A DNA stretch of 64,000 nt, from contig OZ024741.1 of the NCBI GenBank assembly GCA_964016885.1, positions 335,420,001 to 335,484,000 on the forward strand, written 5' to 3'. The translations under genes were made by a program, and so were the position numbers. This document shows, in pieces, positions 9,936-61,060 of the stretch (position 1 is its first letter; each line of letters starts with the position of its first letter). Origin of the DNA: Eledone cirrhosa. Lineage: Eukaryota. The notes below the pieces were generated by a model that saw nothing but the letters and a program-made list of their open reading frames with translations, made no database searches and had not been told where the DNA came from.

Positions 9936-12008
9936 TCAGCATGTACCCATGGGAGGTCGGGTACCCTGTATTACTGCGTGACGCCAGAAGTCACGGTCGT
10001 GTGTCATTGACTTTGAGAGGTGTAGTTGGGTAAGGTCGGCTTTTATCACCTCATCCCAAGTCATCTTGGGTCTCCCCACTCCGCGGTTTCCATCAACTTC
10101 TAGTGCTCTGCACCTTTTTATGCAGCTGTCATCCTTCATACGCATCACATGTCCATACCAGCGTAACCGCCTCTCCTGCACGCAGCATTTGATTCCTCTT
10201 ATGCTCAGTCTCTCTCTCAATTCATTTATGCTTTGTCGTTCACGTATATTACTGTTACACATCCATCGGAGCATGCAGGCTTCGTTTCTCTCTAATCTAC
10301 GTAAGTCTTCCACCTTCAGCGCCCAGGTCTCACTACCATGCAACATCGCTGTTCGGATACACGCATCATACAGTCTGCCTTTCATTCTGAGGGAGAAGCC
10401 TTTTGCAGCTAGCAGTGGTAGTAGTTCCCTAAACTTCTTCCATCCCGTTCTTACCCTAGTTATTGTACTTTCTGAGCACCCACCTCCGTTGCTAATTCGG
10501 TCACCTAGGTAGCAGAAGCTGTCTACTGTTTCTACAGGGCCCTCCCAGAGATTGGTGGTACTTGTTTCCTGTGGCTGTTTGCTTGCTGTTTCAGCACAGC
10601 TGCTGCATGTGAATCCTACATTCTTAATTAAGCTTCCTGAGATCCCGCTACATCTCTTGTGTACCCATTGTTTGCATTTGGGGCAAAGAATGGAGTTCCT
10701 ACCTACACCTTTCCTACATACTGAGCAAGGCCATTTCCCTGAGGGGATCTGGGTTCTGTTTTCTCGTCTACTTATAAGGACCTTAGTCTTTGTCATGTTG
10801 ACTTTGAGGCCCTTTCTCTCTAGTCCCTGCTTCCAGGTTTGGAATTTATTCTCTAGTTCTACCATAGATTCAGCTATGAGTGCGAGGTCATCAGCATACA
10901 GGAGTTCCCATGGGCATCCGGTCTTAAACTCCTCCGTTATTGCCTGCAGGACTATGATGAACAGGAGAGGGCTAAGAACAGAGCCCTGGTGGACCCCAAC
11001 CTGTACGCTAAATTCCTCGCTATACTCATTGCCAATCCTAACTTTGCTGACTGCTCCCCTATACATGGCTTGTACCGCTTTCACAAGCCATTCATCTACT
11101 CCTAGTTTTCTAAGAGCCCACCAGATTACTGCACGTGGAACTCTGTCAAAGGCTTTCTCAAGGTCGACAAATGCCAAGTAGAGTGGCTTACTTTTAGCTA
11201 GGTACTTTTCCTGTAATTGCCTCACAAGGAAGAGCGCATCAGTGGTGCCTTTCCCTGGAACAAACCCAAATTGCATCTCGTCTATATTCACCCGGTCCCT
11301 AATCAGCTGTGCTATAACTCTTTCTGTTACTTTCATGACCTGGTCCATCAACTTTATACCTCTATAGTTTCCTCTATCTAGTGCATCACCTTTACCTTTG
11401 TAGCAGTTGACAATGATGCTACTGCACCAATCTTTTGGTATGGCCCCCTCTAGTATTACCTGGTTAACGATACGTGTGGTTATAGTGTGACCTACAGACC
11501 CAGATGCCTTCAGCATCTCGGCAGCTATACCCGATGGACCGGTTGCCTTCCCTATCTTCATATCTCTGATTGCCTTACTTACTACGCTGCCGCTGACTTG
11601 TACTGCTGGTCCCTCTATAGGGTCTACGTAGGGTAGGGTCTCTTCTTCCCATGCATTCTCCTCATTTAGTAATCTATCATAATGACTCTTCCATGCATCT
11701 TTCTTCTCAGCACTTGTGAGGGCAAGCTCACCTTTATCATTCCGGATACACTTCTCTCCAATGACATCACAACTATCTCTGACACACTGCCTCGCAATCT
11801 TGAATACCTCCTGTTTCTGGTCCTCACGTTGTAAAACATGCTTGAATTTTCTATCCTCTGCTTCCCTCCTAGCTAAGTATACTTGTCGCCTAGCTTCCCT
11901 CTTGGTCTCTATGTAATGTACCCTGCTCCCCCCATTCTTCCATTCTTTCCATGCCTGTCTCTTGGCCTTGACTGCTTCATCTACCTTATTGTTCCACCAC
12001 CAAGTCAC
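9936..12008 (-). CDS. RTE reverse transcriptase portion (690 aa)
   Basis: NYRGIKL, MQFGF, AFVDLEKAFDRV, GVHQGSVLSP, YADD, FCYLG, MLHGSETW, RRLRWYGHV; no internal stops. Confidence 0.92.
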   Translation of the reverse strand: MTWWWNNKVDEAVKAKRQAWKEWKNGGSRVHYIETKREARRQVYLARREAEDRKFKHVLQREDQKQEVFKIARQCVRDSCDVIGEKCIRNDKGELALTSAEKKDAWKSHYDRLLNEENAWEEETLPYVDPIEGPAVQVSGSVVSKAIRDMKIGKATGPSGIAAEMLKASGSVGHTITTRIVNQVILEGAIPKDWCSSIIVNCYKGKGDALDRGNYRGIKLMDQVMKVTERVIAQLIRDRVNIDEMQFGFVPGKGTTDALFLVRQLQEKYLAKSKPLYLAFVDLEKAFDRVPRAVIWWALRKLGVDEWLVKAVQAMYRGAVSKVRIGNEYSEEFSVQVGVHQGSVLSPLLFIIVLQAITEEFKTGCPWELLYADDLALIAESMVELENKFQTWKQGLERKGLKVNMTKTKVLISRRENRTQIPSGKWPCSVCRKGVGRNSILCPKCKQWVHKRCSGISGSLIKNVGFTCSSCAETASKQPQETSTTNLWEGPVETVDSFCYLGDRISNGGGCSESTITRVRTGWKKFRELLPLLAAKGFSLRMKGRLYDACIRTAMLHGSETWALKVEDLRRLERNEACMLRWMCNSNIRERQSINELRERLSIRGIKCCVQERRLRWYGHVMRMKDDSCIKRCRALEVDGNRGVGRPKMTWDEVIKADLTQLHLSKSMTHDRDFWRHAVIQGTRPPMGTC

Positions 12009-12066
12009 TCTCCTCCTGCTTGAGGTCTTACTCCAGCCACAAACCTCATCCGTCGCCTCTAGTAAG

Positions 12067-12956
12067 TTATTTTTTTAGGAACTCCCAGTTCTCTTCTACG
12101 TTAAATGTCTCTATCTGTTCTTCTTTACTGTCGTAGGCGTTGAGTAAAATATCTTTAAATCTGTTACTGGTTGAGGGGACTTTCAGCTTCCAGATCTTTC
12201 TTCTCCAGGTTGGCCTCTGTTTCAGGGCTCGTCTAGTTCTGACCGTGAGGTCGCTGACAACTAAGCTATGTTGGGATGTACATTCCTCACTAGGGAAGGC
12301 TTTTGTGTTTACGACCGTCCATCTGTCACGTCCTCTGATGAGGATAAAATCTAACTGACTAGAGTGCTCCCCTGATCTATAGGTGATCAGGTGGTTGTCG
12401 GGTTTTTTAAAGTTTGTGTTACATATCGACATGTCATTGGCGTCGCAGAATTCTAGAAGTCTGAATCCTTCCTCATTCCTTGTGCCAACTCCATGGCCTC
12501 CATGTACTCTATTGAAGCCGTCGCAGTGTTTACCTACGTGTCCGTTAAAATCTCCTGCAATGATTAGGAAGTCCTTGTCGTCTGTTAGAGCAGTAGTGTG
12601 TATTAGGGACTCGTAAAACCTATCCTTAAGTTCGTCTGGCAGCCCCGATTGGGGTGCGTAAGCTGATATTATTGTGGTAATTGTCTTATTCAGGACTAGT
12701 CTGAGTTTAATGATTCTTGCATTTACCCTGTACACTGAGATTACTTTATCTACCCACTTGTCAGCTAATAGTATACCTACACCACCCATCCCATCGTCAT
12801 TTCCCACCCAGAAAAATTTGTAGCACTGGCTTTTTCCTACAAGGACTCTAGCAGACCCTCCTCTCCATCTAGTCTCTTGCACACAGCATACATCAACTTC
12901 CTTTCGCTCTAGCATTTCTACGATTTCTCCTGCTCTTCCTTTCATTGAGCCTACAT
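12067..12956 (-). CDS. RTE APE-type endonuclease portion
   Basis: CVQETRW, GVGIL, SAYAPQ, AGDFNGHVG, TY, SQLDFIL, QHSLV; the first N of the NVG motif is lost at the truncation. Confidence 0.9.
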
Positions 12957-13770
12957 ATTTTTTCATGACGTTATTATTGTTAATTTTACTGATGTAGTAT
13001 TAACTTATTAACTTGGATATTTAATGTAAATGCTAAAGGGTCATCACCCTATTTCATAAGTTATTTTATAGTATGAACACACCATTCACTATATTAACTT
13101 TATATTCTCGGTGCTTTGTAGAAATCCAAGAGATCTGCTACATATACACAGTGTTTGTTGAGATATTTATTTTAATAATTTAAATATTTATCATATAATA
13201 CATTAAACTTTTCTGACATAAAAAATATCAAAGCACAAAATGCAAACATGATATGATTAGCCATATTACACATAATCAAATAGCAAATTAGACACAATTA
13301 GTGAGATAATTAAGATAGAAACAGGTAAAAGCATGAGGGGGTGGGTAAAAGGTATGTTCAAAGGAAATAGACATTTGTATCTGATTTTAGGGAAAAGGGA
13401 CATAATCACAGTGTATTGCACTTACTAGCTAATTTGTCTTCCCTACAAAGTGCTAGGCATATAATTTTGCTTTTGATCTCAAATTAATATTTATCATTGG
13501 CTATATTAAAATCACAAACACTTATTGCTAATCAATAATAATATGTGTGGGTGTATATATATATATATTACTCTGTGTTCTTTATTCTATGATTGGGCTT
13601 CTTAATCTTCATCTTTGGATTAAGATCTCATATATATGCACACACATACATATATATATATATATGCATGTGTATATATATATATATATATATACACACA
13701 TAGATATATATATTTGTATGTACACGCTCACACACACACACACACACATATACATATGTATATATATATG

Positions 13771-13966: not shown

Positions 13967-14597
13967 TACACACACATTTATATTTGTATATACATTTGCA
14001 CATAGATATATATTTTTATGTACACACGCACACATACATAGATATATATTAGTATATACACACTCACACACATAGATATATATTTATATATACTCACATA
14101 CACAAACACATTTATATTAGTAAAAGTATGTAAGTTTTTTTTAGTAGAAATCAAGAATACTGCACTCAATGTAAGATATTATGTGTACTATATTTTGTCG
14201 CTTGAAATCCAGAGTTGGAGACACATTCCAACATTTCATATGTAACACACAAATAACTGTATTTATGCATCATGCACACATAACTGTATCTGCTGCAACC
14301 CTATTCCTTGTGTGTGTATCTGCAGCCAACTATATAGAAGATATAGAGCAGAGAAGCTGCAGATATAATATAGCTGCAGTATTTAAACCAAGGGCCATAA
14401 TTTGTAGCAGTAAAAAGACCAAGTCTCTCTCTCTCACTCTCAGTCAGTAGTTTCTAAACTTGTTTGAATATTGCAGCATACATTAGAGCAACTAAAAAAT
14501 GTTTTAGTGTATGTTGTATATAAAGTCTAAAAATAAGAAATTTAAAATACGTATGTCCCAACGTAAATGATCCATAATAATAGTTGATCACTATAAA

Positions 14598-15175
14598 TAA
14601 CTGTTTCTATTTTAGGCACAAAGCCAGTAATTTTGGTGGAAGGGAAAATCGATTAAATCGACCCCAGTGTGTTACTGGTGCTTTATTTATTGACCCCGTA
14701 AGGATGAAAGGCAAAGCTAACCTCGGCAGGATTTGAACTCAGAGCGTAAAGAACCGTAACTCTATGCCACGAACCATGTTGTAGGCATTCTACCAATCAC
14801 TGTAAATAATGGGTTCTGATTTAGGCACAAGACAAACAATTTTAGGGAAAGGGAAAATCAATTAAATCAACCCCCGATCTCTTAAGGATGAATTGCAAAG
14901 CTAACCTCGGCAAGATTTGAACACAGAACATAAAGGGCTGTAACTATATACTGCAAAGCATGGTGTCCAACGCTCTACCAATTACTGCCAAAATCACTGC
15001 CCTCTTCATTAAAAGTAATGGTTTCAGAATAAGGCACAAGGCTAACAATTTCAGGGGAGGGGAAAGTAGATTAAATTGACCCCAGTGCATTACTGGTACT
15101 TTAATTTATCGACCCCATAAGGATGAAAGGCAAAAGTAACATTTGGGAGATTTGAACTTAGAATATAACGGGACA
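14598..15175 (-). mobile_element. Three head-to-tail SINE family 1 copies
   Basis: The block GGCACAAG..AAGGATGAA(AG/TT)GCAAAG..GATTTGAAC repeats at about 14600, 14810 and 15020. Confidence 0.8.
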
Positions 15176-19169: not shown

Positions 19170-21945
19170 TGAAAAGGAATGGTAATGGTATGGTAATGGT
19201 AATGGTATGATAATGGTATGACAATGGTATGGTAATGGTATGGCAAGGGTATGGGAATGGTATTGTAATGGTAATGGTATGATAATGGTATCGCAATGGT
19301 ATGGTAATGGTATGGCAAGGGTATGGTAATGGTATGGGAATGGTATGGCGATGTTATGGGATGGTATGGTGATGGTATGGTGATGGTACAGTAGTGGTAT
19401 GGTAATAGTATGGAAATGTATGGTAATGGTATGGTAATGGTATGGGAATGGTATGGTAATGGTATGACAAGGTTATTGGAATGGTATGGCGATGGTATGG
19501 AAATGGTATGGGAATGGTATGAGAATGGTCTGGTAATGATATGGTAATGGTATGATAATGGTATTGTAATAGTATGGTAACGGGATGGCAATGTTATGGG
19601 AATGGTATGGTGATGGTATGGTAATGGTACGGTAATGCTATGGTAATAGTATGGTAATGGTATGGTAATGGTACGGTAATGGTATGGTAATAGTATGGTA
19701 ATGGTATGGTAATGGTATGGCAACGGTATGGTAATGGTATGGTAATAGTATGGTAATGTTATGGGAATGGTATGGTGATGGTATGGTAATGGTATGGCAA
19801 TGTTATGGGAATGGTATGGTAATGGTTTGGAAATGGTATGGTAATGGTATGGCAATGGTATGGGAATGGTATGGCAAGGGTATGGTAATGGTATGGGAAT
19901 GGTATGGCGATGTTATGGGATGGTATGGTGATGGTATGGTGATGGTACGGTAGTGGTATGGTAATAGTATGGTAAATGTATGGTAATGGTATGGTAATGG
20001 TATGACAAGGTTATTGGAATGGTATGGCGATGGTATGGAAATGGTATGGGAATGGTATGAGAATGGTCTGGTAATGGTATGGTAATGGTATGATAATGGT
20101 ATTGTAATAGTATGGTAACGGGATGGCAATGTTATGGGAATGGTATGGTGATGGTATGGTAATGGTACGGTAATGCTATGGTAATAGTATGGTAATGGTA
20201 TGGTAATGGTACGGTAATGGTATGGCAATGGTATGGTAATGGTATGGTAATAGTATGGTAATGTTATGGGAATGGTATGGTGATGGTATGGTAATGGTAT
20301 GGCAATGGTATGGTAATGGTATGGCAATGTTATGGGAATGGTATGGTAATGGTTTGGAAATGGTATGGTAATGGTATGGCAATGGTATGGGAATGGTACC
20401 GGAATGGTACCGGAATGGTATGGTGAAGGCAGGAGAATGGTATGGCAATATTATGGGAATGGTATCAGAATGGTATAGTAATGGCATGAGAAATGTATGG
20501 TAATGGTATGGTAATGGTATGGTAATGGTATGGTAATGGTATGGTGATGGTTTTGGAATGGTATGATAATGGAATGGGAATAGTATGGGAATGGTATGCT
20601 AATGATACGGTAATAGTATGGTAATAGTATGGTAATGGTATGGTAATGGTATGGTAATGGTAGCGTAATGTTATGGGAATGGTATGGCAATGATATAGTA
20701 ATGCTATGGTAATGGGATGGAAATGTTATGGGAATGGTTTGGGAATGGTATGGTGATGGCATGGTGATGGTTTGGAAATGGAATGGGAATGGTATAGTAA
20801 TGGGATAGCAATGTTATGGGAAAGGTATGGTGATGGTATGGTAATGGTATGGGAATTGTATGGTAATGTTATGGGAATGTTATAGGAATGGTATGGTGAT
20901 GGTATGGTAATGGTACTGTAGTGGTATCGTAATAGTATGGTAAATGTATGGTAATGGTATGGGAATGATATGGTAATGGTATGGCAATGTTATGGTAATG
21001 GTATGATAATGGTATGGTAATTGTATGGGAATGGTATGATAATGGTATTGTAATGGTATGGTAATGGGATGGCAATGTTATGGGAATGGTATGGTGATGG
21101 TATGATAATGGTATGGTAATGGTATGCTAATAGTATGGTATTGGTACAGGAATTGTATGGTAATGGTATGGCAATGGTATGGTGATGGTATGGTGATGGT
21201 TTTGGAATGGTATCATAATGAAATGGGAATGGTATGGGAATGGTATGCTAATGATATGGTATGGTATGGTAATAGTATGGTAATGGTATGGTAATGGTAC
21301 GGGAATGGTATAGTAATGGTAGCGTAATGGTAGCGTAAGGTTATGGGAATGGGATGGAAATGTTATGTGAATGGTTTGGGAATGGTATGGTGATGGCATG
21401 GTGATGGTTTGGGAATGGAATAGGAGTGGTATAGTAATGGATAGCAATGTTATGGGAATGGTATGGTCATGGTATAGTAATGGTACAGTAATAGTATGGT
21501 AATAGTATAGTAATGGTATGGTAATGGGATAGCAAAGTTATGGGAATGGTATGGTGAATGGTATGGTACTGGTATGAGATTTGTATGGTAATGGTCTGGT
21601 AATGGTCTGAGAAGGGTATGGCAAAGGTATGGTAATTGTATGGGAAAGGTATGATAATGGTATATTAATGGTATGGTAATGGGATGGCAATGTTATGGGA
21701 ATGGTATAGTGATGGTATGGTAATGGTATGATAATGGTACGAGAATGGTATGGCAACAGTATGGTAATGTTATGGGAATGGTATGGTGATGGTATGGTAA
21801 TATCATGGTAATTGTATGGGAATGGTATGGCAATGGTATGGTAATGGGATAGCAATGTTTTGGCAATGGTATGGAAATGGTATGGTAATGATTTGATAAT
21901 GGTATTGATATGCTAATGTTATGGGAATGGTATAGGAATGTTATG
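19170..21945. repeat. Satellite of degenerate AATGGTATGGT (ATGGT-based) units, ~2.8 kb
   Basis: Continuous 5/6-mer ATGGT/AATGGT variants; + strand is strongly C-poor; internal ~540-560 bp duplication. Confidence 0.95.
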
Positions 21946-24607: not shown

Positions 24608-25365
24608 TCAGCATCATCATCGTTTAATGTCCATGTTTCACACTGGCATGGGTTAGACAAGTTATCTTGTGAGTAATGCCAGGTCAGGTGACCATGTCTT
24701 GCTCATAGTTTCTACAACTGGATGCCTTTCCTAACACCAACCTCATTTCCAATGTGCTAGGTGCTTAGTGCTATGATGCCTACATGACCACTTTATAGTG
24801 TGGACTGGGTACTTATTGCCGTGACACCTACACAACCAGTTTGCAGTGTGGACTGGGTATGTTTTGCCGTGACACCTACACGACCACTCTACAGTGTGGG
24901 CTGGGCACTTTTTGCCGTGTCACCATCATCACCCCTTTACAGTGTGGGCTAGGCACTTTTTGCCGTGTTGCCATCATGACCACTCTACAGTGTAGGCTAG
25001 AGGCTTCACTGGATGTATGCTTCATGGGAAATATATAGGAGTGGGTGGGGTGGTGCTATATATATGCTTCAGTCTCGGCTTGTGCTCATGGGAAGTCTGA
25101 TCTTCTGTAATGCTGTGTAACACCAGAGATCTCAGTCCTGTGTCATCGCCTTTGAGAGGTGCAACTGGGCAAAGTCAGCTTTTATCACCTCGTAACAAGT
25201 CTTCCTGGATCTCCTCACTCCTTGGCTTCCATCAACTTTGAGAGCTCTGCACCTTTTTATACAGCTGCATCCTTCATATGCATCACATGTCCATACCATC
25301 ACAATCTCCTCTCCTGCACACTGTATCTGATTCCTCTTTGGCCTAGTTTTTCTCTCAGTACATTT
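24608..25365 (-). mobile_element. RTE 3' fragment with five ~48-bp tandem units in the 3' UTR
   Basis: 25080-25365 matches the RTE C-terminus (WYGHV..MKD..CIK.CRAL); ACCTACACGACCACTCTACAGTGTGGGCTGGGCACTTTTTGCCGTG-like units at 24778-24998; (CAT)n tail. Confidence 0.85.
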
Positions 25366-25654
25366 ATATATATATATTGAGAGAGAGAGGAGATGAATAG
25401 ATAGATAGATAGATATGTTTCTTTATTAGCCACAGGGGCACAAAAGAAGGGGACAAATACAAAGGGGAAAGTTTACATACAATAAAAACGTGTAAAATGT
25501 TATCACAAATGCAATTTAAAAAGTTAGTCGATTTTCCCCAATAAGGGGAGACAGTTTATATGGGTAACACATACCCCCGAAAAAATGTGCAACCCTCATC
25601 TCCAGGAGTACAAAGAGTTTGTACTCCTTCCCTCTCCTCCTCCTTTTCCTCAAC

Positions 25655-28600
25655 CTACAGGCTGATATAGAGAGAAGGCCCATTCACTCGGGCCATTCTC
25701 GCCACTTTCACCCACCTTTCATAAAACTTGCTGGGGTACAGCACCTCTCTCTCCATCCTGATTCTTCTTCCAAAGTGGTATTTGAAAAAAAGAATCAGTT
25801 GTTGGCCGGAGAGAAAGGTGTCTGAACTCAGCCCTTTCAACCTTGTCCACCATACAACCTCTTTCGCCATAGCTATCACACAAAGGAAAACCACCTCTCC
25901 TTCTTTTTTGAAGGAGGGTGGCGGTTTGATCATGACAATGGACTCGGTGGTCAACTGGATTGGTCCCACCCGCGACAATAGTCGTTCTACATAGCCCCAC
26001 AGGTCAGTGACGCCCGGGCAGTGTATGAATGCATGCGCGATGGTTTCTTTGTCTCGCACGCACCTCGGACAGATCTTTTTTGCAGGGTCCCTGCCCGGGC
26101 GCCCATGTCTGTAGAGCTTGTCTCGAACTGGTAGAGCTCCTCAGTACCACTGCCAGGCCAGGGACTTTTGAAAGTTGTCCATCGGTCCCGGGCGGAAAGT
26201 CCTACCGAACAGACTGGCCAGTTCATTTTCCTCTACGCCTAGAGTTTCACCGAGCGCATCGTCGCACTTGCTGCGGATCAACCCTCTATAGAATGACGAA
26301 GTGGAGTCTCCACTGATCGCCGGGTCCGCCTGCCAGAGGGCTGTGAGCGCCTGAGCACATTCGATGTGCCAGTCGCCCATTTTCCTCAGTCTTTGCTTGA
26401 CCCAGGACTGCAGCTCGGTCAGCGAGACGAGTCGTGGGAAGGCTCGCCTCATGAACGGGGCCCACACCGGTTGTCCGGTGAGGAATATGTAGAGATGCCG
26501 CAGCCTGAACGTGTGTTTGTGCATCGTCAAACACGGCATCCCCAGCCCTCCGTTAGAAGGGTGTTGGCAGCAGATGGATCTTCTCACCAAAGGAGCCTGC
26601 CTCTTCCAAAGGAATTGGAAGAGCGCGCGCTCCATTTTGGCGAGCGTTTTGGCTGGACAAGGCACGACGGTCAAGCGGTAGTAGATGGTGGACGCTATAC
26701 AAGTGTTCGCCACCTCCGCTCGACCTTTCAAGGATAGTTTGCACTCGGCCCACTTCTGGGTGAGTGCAAACACCTTGGCCGTCACTTTGTTCCAGTTCTT
26801 CTCCACCTGGAAGTCCGGACCAAACCAGACCCCGAGCAGCTTTACCGGTCCTTCCGTCCAGCGTCCGACGACGCCATCGGAAGGCATCGGTTTGCCTCTC
26901 CACGATCCGAGTTGCAAACCGATGGACTTGTCCCGGTTCAGCTTCGCTCCTGTGAAACTTTCGTATTCCTTCAGGAAGGTGCCGACTTCCTCGATTTGCG
27001 AGGCGCTCGACATCATTAATGCTACGTCGTCGGCGTAGGCCGACGCCGCTTTCCGCAGTCCCGGTTCCAGAGGGAAGCCCTGCAATAACTCCAACTTCCA
27101 CAGTAGTGGCTCAAGAGTCAGTACGTACAGAAGGGAGGAGAGAGGGCATCCCTGTCGAATGGATCGCGTAATATGGAACGGCTCCGAGAGATAGCCGTTC
27201 ACCTTGACCCTTGAGCAGATGTTGCTGTTGTGCATTGCAGCAATCCAGCCCCTGAACACGGGTCCGAAGCCTGCCGCCTCGAGCACCGCATCCAGGTAAC
27301 GATGGTCAACCCTATCGAAAGCCTTAGACTGATCCAAGTTGATCAGGGCCCCACCGAAGCCGGGTTTACACCCTACCCTCTCTATGATGTATCGCATGAG
27401 GTGGAGGTTGTCGTGTATGGACCTGGTCGGGATTGCGCATGTCTGCGCTTCTCCCACCAGGTTCTCGACGACAAGCGCCAGCCTCTTTGCCAACACCTTG
27501 GCCAAAATCTGTAACTCTGTGTTTAGCAGAGTTATGGGCCGGAAGTTGCCTATGTCATCCCCCTTATTCTCGTCCTTCCTGATTAGTGTGACTACACCCC
27601 CAGTTACAGAACTGGGAATTCTCCCGTTCTGTTGCCAGTTGCAGTAGACCGCTTCCAGGAGACCGGAGAATAAGTCCGGCATTGCTACGTAAAATTCGTA
27701 GGGTAGACCGTCAAGACCTGGAGACTTGCGTTTGCCGCATTGGCTCAGCGCATCCCCTATCTCAGCGGCTGAAATTGGCTTTTCGTAGAACTTTGCCTCG
27801 CTGTCCGAGAGTCGCGGTAGGCCATCGAGGTATGGACCGAAATCCATAGCCCCTCCCGCCCCCCCCCCCCCCCGAACGGTCGAGCAAAGTGCCGCTGAAA
27901 GGCCGCACACATCTGCTTCGGCTCACGTATCACGTTTTGGTCCTTCAAAGACCGAATCGTGGACTTGTTGCCACTTTTTGCCTCCATCACTCGGGCCCAG
28001 CTAGCAGCTTTGGCTCCCTCGTTTCCCAGAGCACGTATTTTGCTTCTGACAACGCAGCCCTCGTGCTTTGCGTCGAAGAACTGGTCCAAGGCCGTTCTCG
28101 TTGCTAGCACGCTGGCTACGTTGCCACTTCTAATTGCCTCTTCTACTTTATCTACCAGTTCATTCTCGGTTCTATTTCTATCTAACGCTAATTCTTTACT
28201 AAAAACTAACGAGCCTAATCTAACTGCCCTCTTAAGAGAGTACCACCATCTGTTGTTGACAATGGTCCCTGTCAAGTGCTGTTTAACTGAAGTGCTAATC
28301 CGTCTACTGTAGGCTTTGCTTGTCGGTAACGACAAGTTCAGCTTCCAGTAGCCGGGTCCTTGTCTATGGGTTCTATCAAGGTTGGCCATGCAGGTCACTA
28401 GTTTGTGATCTGAATAGGCAACCATGAACATTTGTGGACAGCTAAACATTTCCCTATCCTTATTTCTAACTAGAACCCTATCTAGGTACGATCTAGATGT
28501 TCCGCTACGATTAGTCCACGTCCACAGTGGCGCAGTCGGAAAATCTAGTCGATATCTATCGGCCAGGTCAAATCGGTCGATTAACTGTTTGAGGCTGTTA

Positions 28601-29055
28601 CACCCCCCCCCCCTTTATTGGGACATGCTCCCACATAGTCCCAACGTGCATCTAGGATTCCATTCCAGTCCCCCACTAAAAGCAAGGAGCGGGACGTTCC
28701 CAGAAAAGTCTCTAGACGTTTGAAGAATTCTGGCCGCGGTGTCCCGGATGGGGCATATGCGGCCACCAGCCTGAAGGCTCCACCTTCACTACCGTCAACG
28801 TCTAGGACCAACAGTCGACCCTCTACGTCGAGATGTACCGTCTGTGTTACGAGGCCCAGGTGTTTCCGCAGCAAAACAGCAACTCCGCCCCCACCCCTCG
28901 GTTGACAGAGAGATGCGTCGCTCCCTGTGGATCCTGGACTCGCAAATGGCTACCACATCCATACTGTGCGACCTGAGGTCGTTTAAGAGTTTGCCCTGTT
29001 TCCAGGGCATCCCCGGGCCGCGTACGTTCACACATCCAACTCTTATATTGGCCAT
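25655..29055 (-). pseudogene. Element A ORF2 (APE-RT-CCHC), disrupted
   Basis: Pieces GCVNVRG, GDWNG, YSDH, KSPGLDG, NFRPITLLN, DQSKAFDRV, RQGCPLS, AYADD, ETIAHAFIHC; colinear with 32380-35817; several frameshifts, some at G homopolymers. Confidence 0.92.
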
Positions 29056-29092
29056 GTTGGTGCTGAAAAGTTAAAAGAGGAAAAGAGATCAC

Positions 29093-31051
29093 TCACCCTT
29101 CGTCTCCTGGGGACCAGGCCACACGATTTCCATGGGGGGTGTTGGAGGGGTTGTCTGGATGGGTGGTGGTTTCCGGCGGGGTGGGGACGCAGATGTTTGG
29201 TGGGGTGGGGTCTGGTGGGATGGGGGTGTCTGGGGTGGGGAGGCATTTGAGAAGGACGCGGTTGAGTGGTTTCACGCAGGAATTACCCACATCCTTCTCA
29301 AATGTTTCTTTTAGGGACCTATAAGTTTGTATAGGGACCCTAATCAGTTTTAGGTTCAGTTTGTTGCTATTTTTAATAGAGTGGGCGAAAGTTTTCCCTT
29401 CGGTGAAAACCGAAGGGTCGTTCGTGATGGTCTCCATTAGTGTTTTGTTTTCAGTGTTTATGTAAGTGTAAGTGTAATTTTCTTGTGTTGTGTTTGTTTT
29501 TGTCTGTAGTTCTTGTGTGTGCTTTCGTTTTGTTGTAGGTATTTTGTTTTCAGGAGGTGGGGGTTTTGTTTGTGATGTTTTTGTTGTTTGTGTTGGTGGT
29601 TGTATGTTTGTGGTAGTGTTTGCTGGTTTTTTGCTTTTGTGATGTCTTTTCTTTCTTTTCGAGGGAGAACCCCATCGCTCGAGCGATGGGGTTCTCCCTC
29701 GTCTTCACTGGGTGATGGCGAGATAGCCTCATCTGTTGTATCGTCTGTGTGATTGGGGAGGGGTATGTCTTGGGGAGCTGTTGTGTCTGTATGTGATTTT
29801 GCAGTCGTTTTAGGTGGAGTGGGGTTGGGTGGGACTGTGTTTGTTGTGGTTATTTTTGTGTGTTGGTGTTGTTGTTGTTGTGGTGGTGTTGGTGGTTGTG
29901 TTGTTTTGATGGGTGTCGGCAGAAGAGCCTTTTTTTGGTTCATTAGTTTAGGACAGGAAGCCCTCAGGTGACCCCTGCTAAAGCAATGGTAACATGAAGG
30001 CCGCCTACCCTCAACCGAAAGGTTTATGTAGGTGAGTCCGTCCAGGAGTACACGCTGTGGGATCATAGCTATTCGCTCTGGGCTCATTTGCACCAGAACT
30101 TCAATGCTAGTCCCATTGAATACATCTCTGGGGGACTTTCCTACTGACAGTATTGTGTCTTGATCAAAATTGATGAAGCCGCACAGTATCCTCCATATGT
30201 TCACCTTTGGTGTGACCTTCGTGATTTGGATCTTTTGTGTCCTTTTCCCCATGTATGTAGGGAAAAAGGTGTACAGGTTGGATACAATTGGCGACACAGA
30301 GTAATTTTGGGCCGTCAATTGATCCTTCATGAGTACCGAAATACTCCCAAAAAGTTTGCTTCTTTGAATGAATGCAATATCATTCATTGAATTTTTGAAA
30401 ACCAGTTCAATTTCTTTCTGTGACAATTGGACTGGTTTTCGGGTAGAATTGGAAACTGTCCTAAAAACTATCGTTTTGAGAGCAGTTTCCTTGAGAATTT
30501 CTACCGGAGAATTGATGCTGAAAGCACCATTTTTTTCGAAAGTGACATATCTCCTAGCGTCCTTTAAAAGTTGTTCGGCATTTGTTATGTCGATATATAT
30601 CAGTTCCTCCTTTTTTTGAACTGTCTGTGCAAAGGAGATTTTGGTTTCTTTGTGGAATTATCCGTGTTGGTGGTGTTGTCATTATTGTTGTTATTGTTGT
30701 TGTTATTCTTGTTGTCACTGATGTTGATATTATTCGTATTTTCCTAGGTGTTGGTGTTGGTGTTGTTGTTGTCTTTGATGCTGGTGTTATTGGTGTTGTC
30801 TTTATTTTTTCTTTGTTATTGTTATCATTGTTGTTTTTATCATCATTATTGGTGTTGCTGTTATTTTTGTTGTCATTGAACTGTTTGGTGTCATTTGTGT
30901 TGTTTGGATATGAATTTGTTTTTACATTTTCATTTCGTCTTTCCATCTCTATAGTATCTATTGAGAAGGAAAGGGAAGAAGACGATGTTGACTGCGAGCT
31001 CTGTAGTCTTACCGACTCTCCACCACCATTATCGTTGAACGCAGCGTTCAT
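29093..31051 (-). pseudogene. Element A ORF1 (gag-like, CCHC zinc knuckle), frameshifted
   Basis: CYHCFSRGHLRASC (C-x2-C-x4-H-x4-C) at about 29952-29993; low-complexity N/T/P linkers; C-terminal block shared with element D. Confidence 0.8.
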
Positions 31052-31280
31052 AACGTAATCAAATTCTTTATTTCCAAAATTCGATGGAGAAAAAATTTTC
31101 AAACGAATATTTCGCCCCTGTAGGGGCGAAAATGAGTTGACCCACCATCTGAAGGTCCAGACGGGGGGGGGGGGGGTCAAGTTACTCAATAATATAAAAT
31201 TTAACTGAAAACTCACGTTTTTTCTTACATAAAATAACGGAAACTTCTCCGCGAAGTTACACACGTCTGATAGATAGATA

Positions 31281-31654
31281 TATTTCTTTATTAGCCACAG
31301 GGGCACAAAAGAAGGGGACAAATACAAAGGGGGAAGTTTACATACAATAAAAACGTGTAAAATGTTATCACAGATGGAATTTAAAAGTTAGTCGATTTTC
31401 CCCAATAGAGGGAGACAGTTTATATGGGTAACACAGACCCCCGAAAAAAATGTGCAACCCTCATCTCCAGGAGTACGAAGAGCTTGTACTCCTTTCCTCT
31501 CCTCCTCCTTTTCCTCAACCTACAGGCTGATATAGAGAGAAGGCCCATTCACTCGGGCCATTCTCGCCACTTTCACCCACCTTTCATAAAACTTGCTGGG
31601 GTACAGCACCTCTCTCTCCATCCTGATTCTTCTTCCAAAGTGGTATTTGAAAAA

Positions 31655-31657
<3 letters not shown>
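31281..31657 (-). mobile_element. Tx1-like element B, 3' stub nearly identical to A
   Basis: Matches 25416-25792 with few differences; bounded by (GATA)n on both sides. Confidence 0.92.
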
Positions 31658-31716
<59 letters not shown>

Positions 31717-32092
31717 CTCTTTATTAGCCACAAGGGCGCAACAAGAAAGGGGACAATACAAAGACATGCCGGGGATTTTACATACAGTCGTGTAAAAAAT
31801 ATAAAAACAAACAATTTCAACAATCGAAATCCCCAATAGGGGGGAGGCGCCACAAATGGGTTGTTTAATACCCCCGTCGATAGAACAACCCTCAACTCAA
31901 GGAGCGTGTTGTGTAAGTGCTCCTTTCTTCCTTTTGCTCTCTTCCTCAACCTACAGGCTTATAAACAGAGAAGGCCCAATCACTCGGGCCATTTTCGCTT
32001 CATTCACCCACCTTTCAGTAAATTTACTGGGTGCAGTGCCTCTCTCTCCACCCTGATTCTCCTTCTAAAGTGATACTTAAAGAATGGAATCA
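31717..32092 (-). mobile_element. Tx1-like element C, 3' stub of a diverged family
   Basis: Encodes the ORF2 end (RWVNEAKMARVIGPSLFISL*) plus a diverged 3' UTR; bounded by (GATA)n. Confidence 0.9.
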
Positions 32093-32115
32093 ATAGATAG
32101 ATAGATAGATAGATA

Positions 32116-35100
32116 AGTTTCTTTTATTTGCCACTAGGGCATCAAAAGTGGGACAAGTACAAAGGGGGGAGTTTACACAAAAAGGCGTCCTCAATAAGGA
32201 GGAGGCAATAACAAAATATAAAAATAAAATAAGATATAACAAAAAATAAAATTTTTAACAAAATCCTCAATAGAGAGGAGGCGCCTTGGGGGGTCGCACA
32301 CACCCCCGAAAAAAGTGTGCAACCCTTTTCCTCAGGAGCACAGAGAGGGGGTGCTCCCTCGTTCCTTCCTCTTTTCCACCTACAGGCTTATGTAAAGAGA
32401 AGGCCCATTCACACGGGCCATTCTCGCCACTTTCACCCACCTTTCATAAAAACGACTGGGGTGCAGCACCTCTCTCTCCATCCTGATCCTTCTTCCGAAA
32501 TGATATCGGAAGAAACGGACCAGTTGTTGGCCAGAGAGAAAGGTGCCTGACCTCAGTCCTTTCAGACGCGTCCACCATACAACCTCTTTCGCCATGGCTA
32601 TTACGCACAGAAACACCGCCTCTGCTTCATCTTTGAAGGGGGGAGGCGGCTTGATCATTACAATAGACTCGGTGGTCAACCGGATCGGTCCCACCCTTGA
32701 CAGCAGTTGTTCGACATAGCCCCACAGATCGGCTACGCCCGAGCAGTGTACCAATGCGTGTGCAACGGTTTCCTCGTCGCACACGCATCTGGGACAGATC
32801 TTTTTGGCGGGGTCCCTACCCGGGCGCCCGTGTCTGTAGAGCCTTTCTCGAACGGGTAAAGCCCCTCGGTAGCACTGCCAGGCCAGGGACTTCTGGAAGT
32901 TGTCCATAGGTCCCGGGCTGAATGTCCTACCGAACAGGCTGGCCAGTTCGTCCTCCTCCATGTCTAGGGCTTCTCCGAGGGCGTCGTCGCACCTGCTGCG
33001 TACCAGCCCTCTATAGAATGTTGCGGTGGAGTCTCCACTGATAACCGGATCCGCCTGCCAGAGGGCGGTGAGCGCCTGGGCACACTCAGTGTGCCAGGCG
33101 CCCAGTTTTCTCGGTCTTTGCTTGACCCAGGATTGCAGCTCGGTGAGTGAGACGAGTCTGGGAAAGGTTCGTCTCACAAACGAGGCCCACACCGGTTGTC
33201 CGGTGAGGAATACGTAGAGGTGCCGTAGCCTTAATGCGTGTTTACGCATCATTAGCCACGGCATCCCCAGCCCTCCTTTCGAAGGGTGTTGACAGCAGAT
33301 GGATCTCCTCACCATAGGAGCCCGCCTCTTCCAAAGGAATTGGAAGAGCGCGCGCTCCATCTTGGTGAGGGTTTCCCTTGGGCAGGGCACTACGGTCAGG
33401 CGGTAGTAGATGACGGACGCTATATAAGTGTTCGCCACCTCCGCCCGACCTTTCAGGGATAGTTTGCAACTGGCCCACTTCTGGGTCAGTGCAAACACCC
33501 TGTTCGTAACCTCCGCCCAGTTTTTCTCCACCTGGAGGTCCGGTCCGAACCAGACCCCGAGCAACTTCACCGGGCCCTCCGTCCAGCGTCCGACGACGCC
33601 ATCAGAGGGCATCGGTCTGCCCCTCCACGTGCCGAGTTGCAAACCGATCGACTTGTCCCGGTTCAGCTTAGCCCCTGTGAACTTTTCGTACTCCTCCAGT
33701 AAGGTGCCGACCGCCTCGATTTCGGAGGCCGTCGACACCATTACTGTCACATCATCGGCGTAGGCTGACACCGCTTTCCGCAATCCCGGTTCCAAAGGGA
33801 TGCCCTGCAACAACTCCAACTTCCGCAGTAGTGGCTCGAGAGTCAACACATACAGAAGGGAGGAGAGAGGGCACCCTTGTCGGATGGACCGCGCGATTTT
33901 GAACGGCTCCGAGAGGTAGCCGTTCACCTTGACCCTAGAGCAGATGCGGCTGCTGTGCATAGCAGTGATCCAGCCCCTGAAAACGGGTCCGAAGCCTGCC
34001 GCCGCTAGCACCGCATCCAGGTAACCATGGTCGACCCTATCGAACGCCTTAGATTGATCCAAGTTGATCAGAGCCCCACCAAAGCCGGGTTCGTTCCCAA
34101 CCCTCTCTATGATGTATCGCATGAGGTGGAGGTTGTCATGGATGGACCTGGACGGGATAGCGCATGTCTGCGCATCTCCCACCAGGTTGCCCACGACAAG
34201 CGCCAACCTCTTTGCTAGCACCTTGGCCAAAATCTGTAACTCTGTATTTAGCAGAGTTATGGGCCTGAAGTTACTTATTTCGTCCCCCTTGTTCTCGTCC
34301 TTCCTCACTAGCGTGACTACGCCCTTGGTCACAGTACAGGGAATTCTCCCGTTCTGTTGCCAGTTGCAGTAGACCGCCTCGAGGAGATCGGGGAACAAGT
34401 CCGGCATAGCTAGATATAATTCGTAAGGAAGACCATCGAGACCCGGGGATTTGCGTTTGCCGCATTGGCTCAGCACGTCCTCTATCTCAGCGGCCGAAAT
34501 CGGCTCCTCGCAGGACTTCGCCTCCCTGTCCGAGAGGCGCGGCAGGCCGTCGAGGTATGGACCGAAGTCCACGTTCCCAACCGGCTCCCCGCCCCTCCCG
34601 AACAGTCGGGCAAAGTGCCTTTGAAAGGCCTCACACATCTGCTTAGGCTCAAGAATCGCCCGTCCATCCAGGTCTCGCAAAGACCGGATGGTGGATTTAG
34701 TTCCACTGTTGGCCTCTGTCACGCGGGCCCAGCTAACAGCTTTGGCCCCCTCGTTCCCTAGAGCACGTATTTTACTTCGGACAACGCAGCCTTCGTGCTT
34801 CGCGTCGAAAAACTGGCTCAAAGCCGTTCTCGACGCTAGCACTCTGGCCACGTCGCCGCTTCTAATTGCCTCTTCTACTCTATCTATTAGCTCCCTTTCC
34901 TTCCTATTCCTATCCGCAGCTAGAACCTTACTAAATTCAATCGAGACTACTCTAATCTCTCTCTTTAGAGATACCCACCACCTGCTGTTGACGATCGCTC
35001 CAGTCAACCGTTCCTTAACTAACGTACTAATCCGATTCCTGTAGGCTCTACTTGCCGGCAAGGACAAGTTGAGCTTCCAGTAACCGGGGCCCTGTCTATG

Positions 35101-36159
35101 AGTTCTGTCAAGGTTGACCATGCAGGTCACTAATTTGTGGTCTGAATAGCCAACCATGCGCATTTTTGGACAACTTAAATAGTCCTTATCCTTAATTCTA
35201 ACTAAGAACCTATCTAGGTACGACCTAGATGATCCGCTACGATTTGCCCAAGTCCAGGTTGGCGCAGTCGGAAAATCTAGTCGATATCTATCGGCCAGGT
35301 CAAATCGACCGATTAACCCTTTGAGGCTATTACACCCCTCTCTATCGGGGCAGGCCCCTACGTAGTCCCAGCGTGCATCTAGGATACCATTCCAGTCCCC
35401 CACTAATAGCAAGGAGCGGGACGTCCCTAGAAAAGTCTCCAGACGATGGAAGAAGTCCGGCCGCATTGACCCGAAAGGGCCGTAGGCGGCTACCAACCTA
35501 AACGCTCCACCTTTACCACTGCCAAGGTCCAGAACCACTAGTCGACCCTCCGGGTCCAAATGTACCATCTGTGTTGCGAGACCCAGATGTTTTTGCAGCA
35601 GAACGACAACTCCACCCCCACCTCCGGGCTGACAGAGAGATGCGTGCATCTCAAAGTCATCAAAGGTGGGGGCCAGCTGTCGCACGTTGCTGATCCGGGC
35701 CTCGCAAATAACCATCACATCTATACGTTGTGACCTGAGGTCATTTAGAAGCATTGCTTGCTTCCAAGTTGAGCCCAGGCCACGCGCATTTAAGCAGCCT
35801 ACTCTTAGCATAGCCATGTTGGTGGTGAAGAGAAAAGGCACTTACCTCTCTGCGTCCCGGGTATCGGGCTGCACAATTTCCATTAGGGTGGGGGATGGGT
35901 TGTTGGGTGGGGTGGTGGTTTGTGGAAGTGTGGGGGCATCAGTGTGTTGTGTGGTTGGGGAGCTTGGAGTTGTGAGGGTGTTTGGGGAGGGGGTGGGATA
36001 GTTTTTTAGGAGGACGCGGTTAATGGGCCCGACGCAGGGGGGACCCACGTCCTCTTTAAAATTGTTTTTTAAAGTTTTATAGGTGTCCTGTGGGGCCTTA
36101 ATCATTTTGAGGTGGGGGAAATCCCCTGCCTGGGTGAAGTTAGGCCCTTGTGTTTTTAT
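32116..36159 (-). mobile_element. Tx1-like element D, truncated within ORF1, ORF2 intact
   Basis: Bounded by (GATA)n at 32093-32115 and 36160-36190. Confidence 0.93.
32380..35817 (-). CDS. Intact ORF2p: APE endonuclease, reverse transcriptase, CCHC zinc finger (1145 aa from ATG 35817)
   Basis: CLNARG, ICEAR, GDWN, SYLDRF, YSDH; PGYWKLN; KSPGLDG, NFRPITLLN, DQSKAFDRVDH, RQGCPLS, YADD, LLGV, GGLG; CPRC-x8-H-x4-C; no stops. Confidence 0.95.
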   Translation of the reverse strand: MAMLRVGCLNARGLGSTWKQAMLLNDLRSQRIDVMVICEARISNVRQLAPTFDDFEMHASLCQPGGGGGVVVLLQKHLGLATQMVHLDPEGRLVVLDLGSGKGGAFRLVAAYGPFGSMRPDFFHRLETFLGTSRSLLLVGDWNGILDARWDYVGACPDREGCNSLKGLIGRFDLADRYRLDFPTAPTWTWANRSGSSRSYLDRFLVRIKDKDYLSCPKMRMVGYSDHKLVTCMVNLDRTHRQGPGYWKLNLSLPASRAYRNRISTLVKERLTGAIVNSRWWVSLKREIRVVSIEFSKVLAADRNRKERELIDRVEEAIRSGDVARVLASRTALSQFFDAKHEGCVVRSKIRALGNEGAKAVSWARVTEANSGTKSTIRSLRDLDGRAILEPKQMCEAFQRHFARLFGRGGEPVGNVDFGPYLDGLPRLSDREAKSCEEPISAAEIEDVLSQCGKRKSPGLDGLPYELYLAMPDLFPDLLEAVYCNWQQNGRIPCTVTKGVVTLVRKDENKGDEISNFRPITLLNTELQILAKVLAKRLALVVGNLVGDAQTCAIPSRSIHDNLHLMRYIIERVGNEPGFGGALINLDQSKAFDRVDHGYLDAVLAAAGFGPVFRGWITAMHSSRICSRVKVNGYLSEPFKIARSIRQGCPLSSLLYVLTLEPLLRKLELLQGIPLEPGLRKAVSAYADDVTVMVSTASEIEAVGTLLEEYEKFTGAKLNRDKSIGLQLGTWRGRPMPSDGVVGRWTEGPVKLLGVWFGPDLQVEKNWAEVTNRVFALTQKWASCKLSLKGRAEVANTYIASVIYYRLTVVPCPRETLTKMERALFQFLWKRRAPMVRRSICCQHPSKGGLGMPWLMMRKHALRLRHLYVFLTGQPVWASFVRRTFPRLVSLTELQSWVKQRPRKLGAWHTECAQALTALWQADPVISGDSTATFYRGLVRSRCDDALGEALDMEEDELASLFGRTFSPGPMDNFQKSLAWQCYRGALPVRERLYRHGRPGRDPAKKICPRCVCDEETVAHALVHCSGVADLWGYVEQLLSRVGPIRLTTESIVMIKPPPPFKDEAEAVFLCVIAMAKEVVWWTRLKGLRSGTFLSGQQLVRFFRYHFGRRIRMEREVLHPSRFYERWVKVARMARVNGPSLYISL

Positions 36160-36190
<31 letters not shown>

Positions 36191-36534
36191 GTAGAAAGTG
36201 AGATAGAAGGATAGAGAGAGAAAAAAAGAAAAAGAGAGAGGAAATGAGTGTGCAAAACAATATAGAACAATATAGAACCTGTGATTGGCTGGATAGAGTA
36301 AGGCACGCTTATGATACTGCCAAGTTCTTCCAGCTGTACTGCATTAATGTTATTGTTGTTGTTGCCGTGGTCGTTATTGTTGTCGTTATGGTTGCTGTTG
36401 TTGTTGCTACAGTTGTTGTCATCATTGTTATTGCTGTTGTCATTGTTATCAATCCTGTTGTTATTGGTGGTGTTGTTGTTTTTGTCATTGTTATTAATAT
36501 TGTTGGAGTTGTTATTGTTATTTAGCTCTAACCT

Positions 36535-40268: not shown

Positions 40269-40660
40269 AGTTTTTCTATGTCACTGCTAGAACAAACAGA
40301 TGACGATGAAGATCTAAGAAACGAATTGAATATTAGTATTAATATTCAATATAAAACTCATAAATATATTTATGTAACTTGCTATGTGAGAATGAGAAAT
40401 AAAACTCTAATTTTGTTTTTATATTTATATATATATACGAGCGAGACACGGTCTCCTGACCAATCTTGCCTCAAATGGGACAATTCCAGTCTACTCCATG
40501 CTAGTGTGGAAGATAGACGTTAAAAGGTGATGATGATATATATATATATATATTAATCAATGAAAAAAGAGTTAGTCGATTTGTAATCAACTGACTCTTA
40601 TATATAAGAGTTTCCAAGCACTCAACGGTATATATTTATCTGGAGTATTATTGTAATAAT

Positions 40661-40849
40661 AATTATTTCTACTTTTGGCACAAGGCCAGCAATTATCCCA
40701 GTGTATTACTGGTACTTTATTTTATCGACCCCGTAAGGATGAAAGGCAAAGTTAACCTCGTCGGGATTTGAACTCAGACCATAAAGGGCCGTAACTCTTT
40801 GCTGCAAAGCATGGCGTCCGACCCTCTACCGATACTGCCAATCCACCGC
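40661..40849 (-). mobile_element. SINE family 1, young full copy
   Basis: Close reverse-complement match to 49739-49929. Confidence 0.9.
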
Positions 40850-49738: not shown

Positions 49739-50093
49739 GGCGGTGGATTGGCAGTATCGGTAGAGGGTCGGACGCCATGCTTTCCAGCATAGTTACGTCC
49801 CTTTACGATCTGAGTTCAAATCCCGCCGAGGTTGACTTTGCCTTTCATCCTTACGGGGTCGATAAAATAAAGTACCAGTAATGCACTGGGTAATTGCTGG
49901 CCTTGTGCCTAAAGTAGAAACAATTATTTATTCCAACTTTCTATGTTCTGAGTTCAAATTCCACCAAAGTCAACTTTGCCTACCTTCTGGGGTGGGGTCA
50001 ATGTATAAAGTAGCAGTCAAGTATTGTGATTGATTTAATAAACATTTCCCTGCTTTCCTCCAAATTGTTGGCCTTGTAACTAAATTAGAAACT
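49739..50093 (+). mobile_element. SINE family 1 full copy (49739-49929) plus a headless copy
   Basis: A-box, B-box GAGTTCAAATCCC, core GCCTTTCATCCTTACGGGGTCGATAAAATAAAGTACCAG. Confidence 0.9.
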
Positions 50094-58694: not shown

Positions 58695-61060
58695 GACAAC
58701 ACCAGCAACACCAACACCATCAATAACAACCCCACCACGAACAACAACACCACCATAACCAACATTAACACCAACATTCCCAACCCCACCACAACATAGC
58801 ATCTGCTCCACCACCAACAACAACAATCCCCAATAGCCACTGCCATTATGAACAACACCACCAACCCCACCACAACAAAACAGCTCCCCAACCAACAACA
58901 CCATCACCTGCAAAACACCTCCCCACCGACACCACCACCACCTACAACATTAGCACCAACAAAACACCTCTCTCAACAACACCACAACAGCCGCTACCAC
59001 CACCAACACTACCCCCAACACCACCACCTGCAAAACTCCTCCCCACCAACACCCCCCACCAGCAAAACACCTCCCCGCCAACACCACAACAACAACCACC
59101 ACCACCAACAACAACAACACTACCACCAACACCCCCACCAGCAAAACACCTCCCCGCCAACACCATCATCAACATTACCACCAACACCCCTACGGCCACC
59201 ACCAACAACAACACAACAACCGCCACCAACAACAACACTACCACCACCAACACCACCAACAACACTACCACCAACACCACTACCACCAACACCACCACCA
59301 CAACAACCACCAGCACCACCAACACTACCACCACTACGATCACAACAACCACCACCACCAGCACCACTACCACCACTACCACCACCACCACCACAACAAC
59401 CACCAGAACCACCACCACTACCACCACTACAACCACAACAACCACCAGCACCAGCAACACTACCACCACCACCACCACAACAACCACCAGCACCACCAAC
59501 ACTACCACCACTACGATCACAACAACCACCACCACCACCACCACTACCACCACCACTACCACCACCACCAGAACCACCACCACTACCACCACTACGACCA
59601 CAACAATCACCAGCACCAACAACACTACCACCACCACAACAACTACCAGCACCACCAACACTACCACCACTACGATCACAACAACCACCACCACTACCAC
59701 CACCACCACCACCACTACCACCACCACCACCACCACTACCATCACCACCACCACAACAACCACCAGAACCACCACCACTACCACCACTACGATCACAACA
59801 ACCACCACCACTACCACCACCACCACCACTACCACCACCACCACCACAACAACCACCAGAACCACCACCACTACCACCACTACGATCACAACAACCACCA
59901 CCACTACCACCACCACCACCACAACAACCACCAGCACCACCAACACTACCACCACTACGATCACAACAACCACCACCACCACCACCACTAGCACCACCAC
60001 TACCACCACCACCAGAACCACCACAACTACCACCACTACGACCACAACAATCACCAGCACCAACAACACTACCACCACCACAACAACTACCAGCACCACC
60101 AACACTACCACCACTACGATCACAACAACCACCACCACTACCACCACCACCACCACCACTACCACCACCACCACCACCACTACCATCACCACCACCACAA
60201 CAACCACCAGAACCACCACCACTACCACCACTACGATCACAACAACCACCACCACTACCACCACCACCACCACTACCACCACCACCACCACAACAACCAC
60301 CAGAACCACCACCACTACCACCACTACGATCACAACAACCACCACCACTACCACCACCACCACCACAACAACCACCAGAACCACCAACACTACCACCACT
60401 ACGATCACAACAACCACCACCACAACAACCACCAGAACCACCAACACTACCACCACTACGATCACAACAACCACCACCACTACCACCACCACCACCACCA
60501 CCACCACAACAACCACCAGAACCACCAACACTACCACCACTATGACCACAACAACCACCACCACCACTACCACCACCACCACCACCACAACAACAACCAC
60601 CAGAACCACCACCACTACCACCACTACGACCACAACAATCACCAGCACCAACAACACTACCACCACCACAACAACCACCAGCACCACCAACACTACCACC
60701 ACCACTACCAACACTACCACCACTACCACCAACACCACCACCACCACCACAACAACCACCACTACCACCAACACTACCACCAACACCACCAACACCACCA
60801 CCACTACCACCAGCACCACCAACACTACCACCAGCACCACCAACACTACCACCAACACCACCACCACCACTACCACCAACATCCTCACTAACAAAACACC
60901 TCTCCCTCCACACATCACCAATAACAAGACCACCACTGCCAGCGCCAGCACCATCACTGCTTCCACCATCGTCATCGCAGCAATACTGCTGGCACACAGT
61001 GGAAAGCAGCAGCAGCAGCAGCAACAGCACCAGCACCAGCAGCAACAACAGCAGCAGTAG
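58695..61060. repeat. (CAC/CCA/CAA)n-based complex repeat with a 444-bp higher-order duplication
   Basis: CAATCACCAGCACCAACAACAC recurs at 59604 and 60048; CTACGATCACAACAACC subunit recurs many times. Confidence 0.95.

Follow-up and report, generated by a model that had tools for sequence, protein, structure and literature searches.

A 64,000-nucleotide stretch of Eledone cirrhosa DNA (contig OZ024741.1, positions 335,420,001 to 335,484,000; hereafter the window) contains four minus-strand L1/Tx1-type long interspersed nuclear element (LINE) copies, designated A, B, C, and D, which alternate with five (GATA)n tracts. Tabulation of their relatives across the genome identifies a real, recently active group of TATC-preferring LINEs with ATT-preferring sister families. 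We hold with high confidence that A, C, and D represent three young L1/Tx1-type families whose copies enter (TATC)n in a single orientation, with partial duplication of the target. The likely route is target-primed reverse transcription, started at a nick from the APE-type endonuclease that the elements encode.

Insertion sites across the genome

Repeat-free queries of 380 nt, taken from the 3' ends of D, A, and C, returned 1306, 1421, and 797 candidates, respectively, of which the best 40 for each were scored. Removal of the window's own copies left 39 copies of each family, 117 in total, and each was extended until its 5' junction was reached. The 40 scored D matches were all 100% identical over 385 bp, and copies with an intact second open reading frame (ORF2) were found in all three families. 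The background comprised 530 kb in 53 stretches taken at fixed spacing across the genome.

At the 3' junction, the 117 copies fall into TATC (91), (TA)n (13), and other sites (13), against random-position backgrounds of 0.074% for TATC and 2.9% for TA; a strict TATC run of at least 12 nt adjoins 59 of 117 copies (background 0.026%). The 5' count covers the 92 truncated copies and excludes the 25 full-length ones, because the latter's own 5' ends bear a short TC-rich lead. Within 24 nt of the 5' junction, TATC was found in 59 truncated copies, (TA)n in four, and neither in 29 (TATC background 0.78%), with a strict 12-nt TATC run in 40. Microsatellite preference in Tx1 families has been assigned where one sequence type makes up more than 20% of flanks (PMC4494074), a proportion that both sides exceed.

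An earlier note made from the letters of the window, the original prediction, had posited a lineage specific for (GATA)n/(TATC)n, of fixed orientation and without a poly(A) tail, and had proposed a genome-wide search of 3' ends with tabulation of both flanks as its check. The targeting proved real, and its supposed strictness did not stand: 26 of the 117 copies lie elsewhere, and the pattern is a strong preference rather than strict specificity. Orientation is indeed fixed, with TATC in the opposite direction at the 5' junction of none of the 92 truncated copies. The lack of a poly(A) tail likewise holds, since a run of five or more A follows the 3' end in none of the 117 copies; AATAAA sits 3-7 nt before the element end. 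Insertion into (TTC)n was seen in none of the 117 copies, and directly into (TC)n in one (L218).

The genome is rich in microsatellites, and random insertion followed by survival in repeat-rich neutral DNA might be thought to produce such an association. In the background, however, (TA)n tracts of at least six units cover 3.4% and TATC tracts of at least three units 0.084%, so that (TA)n is about 40-fold more abundant than (TATC)n and yet holds only a seventh as many copies. Copies at 99-100% identity, moreover, already show the bias to TATC, and they do so in exact phase and orientation. Such passive accumulation fails on the abundance of (TA)n and is extremely improbable.

Whether the repeat is a target or a tail is decided by the duplications that flank the elements. 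A duplication of at least 9 nt was found in 58 of the 92 truncated copies. Under a stricter definition, which demands at least 9 nt with departures from the pure repeat on both sides, 20 of the 92 carry a locus-specific duplication; 500 within-family shuffles of the flanks gave 1.19 on average and never more than 5. This control superseded a looser one for informative duplications (27 versus a shuffled mean of 7.6). Examples of departures that recur on both flanks are ATCTATCTATCTTGATAG and TATCTATATGTCTATATGTC. These duplications are 9-31 nt long, and two further ones, around A copies at L057 (~310 bp) and L058 (~190 bp), each start in a TATC tract and account for a pair of copies whose 5' junction does not adjoin TATC. 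Since locus-specific duplications flank the elements, the repeat is their target rather than their tail.

An RNA-borne 3' tail of the kind found in CR1/L2/RTE-type LINEs, combined with roughly random insertion, would account for the nearly invariant first three bases past the 3' end and for the TATC that 13 of the 92 truncated copies carry at the 3' side but not at the 5' side. Tail-bearing CR1, L2, and RTE elements differ from the present families, in which the repeat flanks the element at either end, recurs with its local variants in the duplications, and is missing at other targets. TATC stands at the 5' junction of 59 of the 92 truncated copies; 20 of the 92 carry the locus-specific duplications described above; copies in (TA)n or other sites lack the TATC run that an encoded tail would have supplied; and no flank duplication begins directly behind the TATC run, as a tail would produce. 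A tail is very unlikely on these grounds. The original prediction had argued that a simple 3' tail does not explain the fifth tract of the array, which abuts the truncation of D, and had named GATA confined mostly to the 3' end, with random 5' flanks, as the outcome that would speak against targeting. The 5' counts support the former argument, and TATC confined to the 3' side is seen in 13 of the 92 truncated copies.

Transduction of the donor's 3' flank was looked for and found in none of the 117 copies. Two shared downstream flanks considered as transductions were rejected, as they look like insertions into the same multicopy repeats. Two pairs of C copies (L141/L204 and L143/L194) occupy the same insertion position in other multicopy repeats.

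Stacking and the array in the window

A related element lies within 150 nt of 68 of the 117 copies, on both sides in 18 of them, and 84 neighbour orientation calls were the same versus four opposite. The four-element array of the window is therefore the ordinary state for these families, and the original prediction, which took the array itself as a candidate GATA-targeting integration system, was right about the targeting and not about any special standing of the stack. An insertion would be left with TATC on either side, a regenerated site that later copies from any family of the group could find again and build into arrays; such regeneration would explain stacks of one orientation. Similar are the tandem SINEU-3 insertions that sandwich target duplications (PMC4494074), where sequential insertion at a regenerated target also yields same-orientation stacks; unlike the LINEs in TATC described here, the passenger there is a short interspersed element (SINE) and the target a Mariner element. 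In the random 530 kb, the LINE group covers 6472 of 530,000 bp, and a family member adjoins five of 17 TATC tracts of at least three units and four of six tracts of at least six units, a small sample. The elements are thus tied to microsatellite growth, which bears on the design of GATA markers in the host group.

The features of the array are as follows.

25397..25415, plus strand: (GATA)n tract 1, target repeat adjoining the 3' end of A
25416..31268 (5853 bp), minus strand: element A, full-length LINE
25658..29061, minus strand: ORF2 of A (endonuclease and reverse transcriptase), in four pieces with three frame changes relative to an intact family copy
31269..31280, plus strand: (GATA)n tract 2
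31281..31656, minus strand: element B, 3' end (376 bp) from a young subfamily of family A
31657..31716, plus strand: (GATA)15, tract 3
31717..32092, minus strand: element C, 376-bp 3' end of family C
32093..32115, plus strand: (GATA)n tract 4
32116..36159 (4 kb), minus strand: element D, 5'-truncated copy of family D
32125..32142, minus strand: 3'-terminal hairpin of D, GCC-N5-GGC and then AATAAA, a motif that A, B, and C likewise have at their ends
32380..35841, minus strand: ORF2 of D, 1153 codons from stop to stop, ATG at 35817
36160..36190, plus strand: (GATA)n tract 5, adjoining the 5' truncation point of D

Element A, with about 92-94% identity to unbroken full-length copies and with both ORF1 and ORF2 broken, is the oldest of the four; two of the three frame changes in its ORF2 lie at C runs and may reflect slippage or sequence error. 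The ORF1 region of A also contains a perfect palindrome of 42 bp (window 29660-29701). Element B is 97% identical to the 3' end of A and 100% identical to copies at other loci, and element C is 99.2% identical to other family C copies and 73% to A. D shows 99.1% identity to one full-length copy, up to 99.8% to others, and 81% to A over 3.8 kb. Identity among pairs other than A/B is 73-82%. Tract 5 meets D at its truncation point, where comparison with a full-length D copy reveals ~5 nt of microhomology.

These findings bear out the earlier description of five GATA tracts at these positions and of four minus-strand elements, A and B near-identical and C and D distinct, with no comparable tract elsewhere in the window; the sole further GATA/TATC tract of at least three units is (TATC)4 at 646-661. 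The accompanying statement that (TA)n tracts hold no such insertions is correct for the window and fails genome-wide, given the 13 of 117 copies in (TA)n.

An assembly collapse or a local tandem duplication would be compatible with the equal lengths of B and C and with array junctions that the reads leave unbridged. The four copies come, however, from different families or subfamilies (73-97% identity), each has its own truncation point, and many other loci carry mixed-family stacks. B (100%), C (99.2%), and D (99.8%) are closer to copies elsewhere than to their array neighbours, which argues against both processes and makes them highly improbable. The right flank (36244-36520) is represented in the reads by single, low-depth contigs.

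Insertion mechanism, ATT-targeting sisters, and the source of specificity

APE-type LINEs insert by target-primed reverse transcription, and this is the likely route here, from a nick by the elements' own APE endonuclease. The endonuclease would nick the GATA strand at AT^A, and base pairing of the liberated end with the last 2-4 RNA bases (AUC or AU) would add to the bias for TATC over (TA)n. With duplications phased to start at AT, the preceding base is T in 16 of 16 A copies and 16 of 17 D copies, which fits such a nick. In family C, all nine non-TATC copies read ATC+AAT and none ATC+TATA, and in the five of them that have a duplication AAT belongs to the target; this pattern suggests pairing between the last bases of the RNA and the primer.

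Several points weigh against this picture of targeted insertion. Of the 117 copies, 26 are outside TATC and occupy (TA)n or AT-rich positions of no relation to it. The 13 truncated copies with TATC on the 3' side only include two with the duplications of ~190-310 bp and a few with a short or degenerate 5' repeat, and most are without a duplication and unexplained. The phase of the nick is ambiguous, because element end and target overlap. Because the 117 copies were picked as the closest matches to the 3'-terminal 380 nt, they represent young insertions no shorter than this; a TATC end is likewise seen in the handful of older copies that the random regions contain. Finally, the reads did not bridge the array junctions, as they gave multi-copy signal and skipped repeats.

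The random regions also contain related elements, at about 70% DNA identity, with the same end motif running into (ATT)n. Of 29 family E copies, 27 run into ATTATT and none into TATC, with a small bias from a query that included about 5 nt of the repeat; in family F, for which 20 of 39 other matches were fetched, the ATT end is present in 15 of 20 and TATC in none. The 5' junctions of E and F were mostly unreached or rearranged, so that their targeting rests on few duplications (e.g., L305, L314, and L323). An apparent (TAG)n flank at L248 was rejected, as its family sits in ATT. The ORF2 protein of E is 63% identical to that of D. In a FastTree phylogeny, which omitted two near-duplicates of family A, the degraded F copy, and P0048, A, C, and D form one group (support 100) with a fourth TATC family, Z (from L208), and a protein of Argonauta hians (63% identical), and E lies outside. 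The Argonauta match points to a likely octopod host. A hairpin with a 3-bp stem precedes the AATAAA at the end of every family: GCC-N5-GGC or, in E, ACC-N5-GGT, whose predicted stem differs by a single compensatory change.

Copies of E and F (L231:4797-8458, L235, L242, L248; L282-L330) are often found within a short, abundant repeat, at its ATT end; 19 cores of this repeat occur in 530 kb and three copies in the window, at 49780-49930 (plus strand), ~40620-40810 (minus), and ~14560-14770 (minus). This SINE-like repeat, a putative octopus-type tRNA SINE, ends in GGC-CTTGT-GCC..AGAAACAATTATT, with the 5-nt loop of the LINE hairpin and the stem reversed, and a partnership with the ATT families is possible.

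The endonuclease is regarded as the main determinant of target choice (PMC4494074), and the basis on which APE-type LINEs favour particular microsatellites is described as poorly understood (PMC3812793). Specificity might instead be set mainly by pairing of the RNA 3' end with the nicked target, with a generic AT^A endonuclease common to the ATT sisters. The end of each family runs into its own target repeat (..AT(C) in the TATC families, ..ATT in the ATT families), the endonuclease hairpin loop between anchor residues has the length of that of L1 and is similar in both groups, and the nine ATC+AAT copies of family C point the same way. In RTE elements, furthermore, 3' repeats have been linked to the first base of the duplication (PMC6007223). 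Against this, an overlap of only 2-4 nt is evident, the lack of 3' transduction leaves a long read-through into the target unsupported, and the endonuclease differs between the groups at other surface segments, such as one that reads YVGACP in the TATC group and CV(G/R)LAD in the ATT group. In L1, specificity did not follow the endonuclease loop when this alone was grafted (PMC1950540). Protein read-out helped by short RNA pairing is ranked first, ahead of specificity set mainly by the RNA, which is possible and rather unlikely, and which would refine targeted insertion rather than replace it.

A broader scenario, which we regard as speculative and less probable still, is an octopod LINE radiation, not in any catalogue, that switched between ATT and TATC targets mainly through the last RNA bases while keeping a near-generic AT^A endonuclease, and that became the main builder of the host's long GATA tracts. 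If true, it would represent a naturally retargetable APE LINE. The TATC families, with intact and recently active ORF2, and their ATT sisters, which share the 3' hairpin and 63% identity, form a close natural pair, in which swapping endonucleases and RNA ends would separate protein from RNA determinants.

Classification, known relatives, and other features of the window

The anatomy of the elements carries the hallmarks of the L1 group. They have two ORFs, and the ORF2 product of D comprises an N-terminal APE endonuclease, a reverse transcriptase, and a CCHC-type zinc finger at the C-terminus, with Pfam matches to Exo_endo_phos, RVT_1, and, below the cut-off, zf-RVT. The group's habit of 5' truncation with target-site duplication is present as well (92 of 117 copies truncated, 58 of these 92 with a duplication of at least 9 nt). 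The best solved relative of D ORF2 is human L1 ORF2p (PDB 8sxt and others; E 7e-48), far ahead of R2; the two share a collinear endonuclease and reverse transcriptase and the length of the endonuclease hairpin loop. Mammalian L1 typically ends in a 3' poly(A) tail; the present elements differ from human L1 in lacking poly(A), in the CCHC knuckle of ORF1, and in using a microsatellite instead of T tracts. Matches in the ESM Atlas were confined to reverse transcriptase and endonuclease clusters.

In full-length D copies, ORF1 encodes about 600 aa with one CX2CX4HX4C knuckle, which matches zf-CCHC at E 0.0035 and 17.8 bits, below the cut-off of 20.8, and no match to RRM or Transposase_22 was found. 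The type I ORF1 of the Tx1 clade combines a CCHC zinc knuckle with an RRM (PMC5203782). Relatives at ~26-37% identity in metagenome contigs include elements beside U2 small nuclear RNA (snRNA) sequence, as identified with Rfam, and elements with (TC)n at both ends, both of which Tx1 would lead one to expect. Those at L351, L352, L378, L405, and L407 are flanked by (TC)n, those at L331-L337, L356, and L373 lie beside U2 snRNA, and that at L346 is in a U1/5S cluster. In a FastTree reverse-transcriptase tree that included these distant relatives (loci with at least 330 reverse-transcriptase residues only), the lineage sits at an unresolved deep fork. Membership of the Tx1 clade is probable and fits the anatomy. 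Two family D copies, L129 and L126, represent two 5' variants with 87% identity overall and almost none of the divergence in ORF2 or at the 3' end, a pattern suggestive of an exchange of the 5' untranslated region and ORF1. Between 5% and 47% of the sampled sequence words also occur in 16 other organisms. In the one of these examined more closely (X4), pieces nearly identical to D were found; because X4 also has other host repeats in common, a related species is the simpler reading, and no transfer is claimed.

In teleosts, the Tx1 families Kibi and Koshi occupy (TC)n and (TTC)n, respectively, and crocodilian Tx1 families occupy (TTCC)n and (TTTC)n (PMC4494074, PMC3812793). Like these, the present elements are L1/Tx1-type APE and reverse-transcriptase LINEs that prefer a microsatellite; here, however, (TATC)n comes first and (TA)n second, and copies number in the thousands. 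They work like Kibi and Koshi without belonging to them by target, and a placement as sister to the (TC)n-flanked relatives is not supported by the reverse-transcriptase tree.

Other LINEs found in microsatellites are Waldo (ACAY), Mino (AC), Dong (TAA), and Togen (TG) (PMC3812793, PMC4640811). They share a microsatellite as the site with the present families, and none has a GATA or TATC target in the excerpts cited; the TAA target of Dong is that of the ATT sister families E and F. L1-Tx1 elements have expanded in coleoids, with no target stated in the excerpt (PMC8967140). A search of the full-text literature (mostly title and start of abstract, with Repbase and Dfam outside its scope) gave no evident TATC- or GATA-targeting LINE. 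The TATC target may already be catalogued; it likely represents a new target within the known kind of microsatellite-preferring LINE, and not a new class of mechanism. Waldo, Mino, Dong, and Togen belong to other clades (R1, R4, and NeSL-related).

Elsewhere in the window, an unrelated LINE at 9936-12999 (minus strand) encodes an APE endonuclease and a reverse transcriptase with a PHD finger after it, split into two ORFs, and its reverse transcriptase is 82% identical to copies in L258 and L266. A satellite at 19178-21905 consists of about 249 copies of an 11-bp unit (AATGGTATGGT) and shows strong G skew. A 48-bp tandem repeat (24779-24993, 4.5 copies) has very high summed depth in four read runs, and this high depth in all four runs marks it as a genome-wide repeat. 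An (ACC)n-based array at 58996-60878 has a higher-order period of 444 bp, with long ORFs on both strands.

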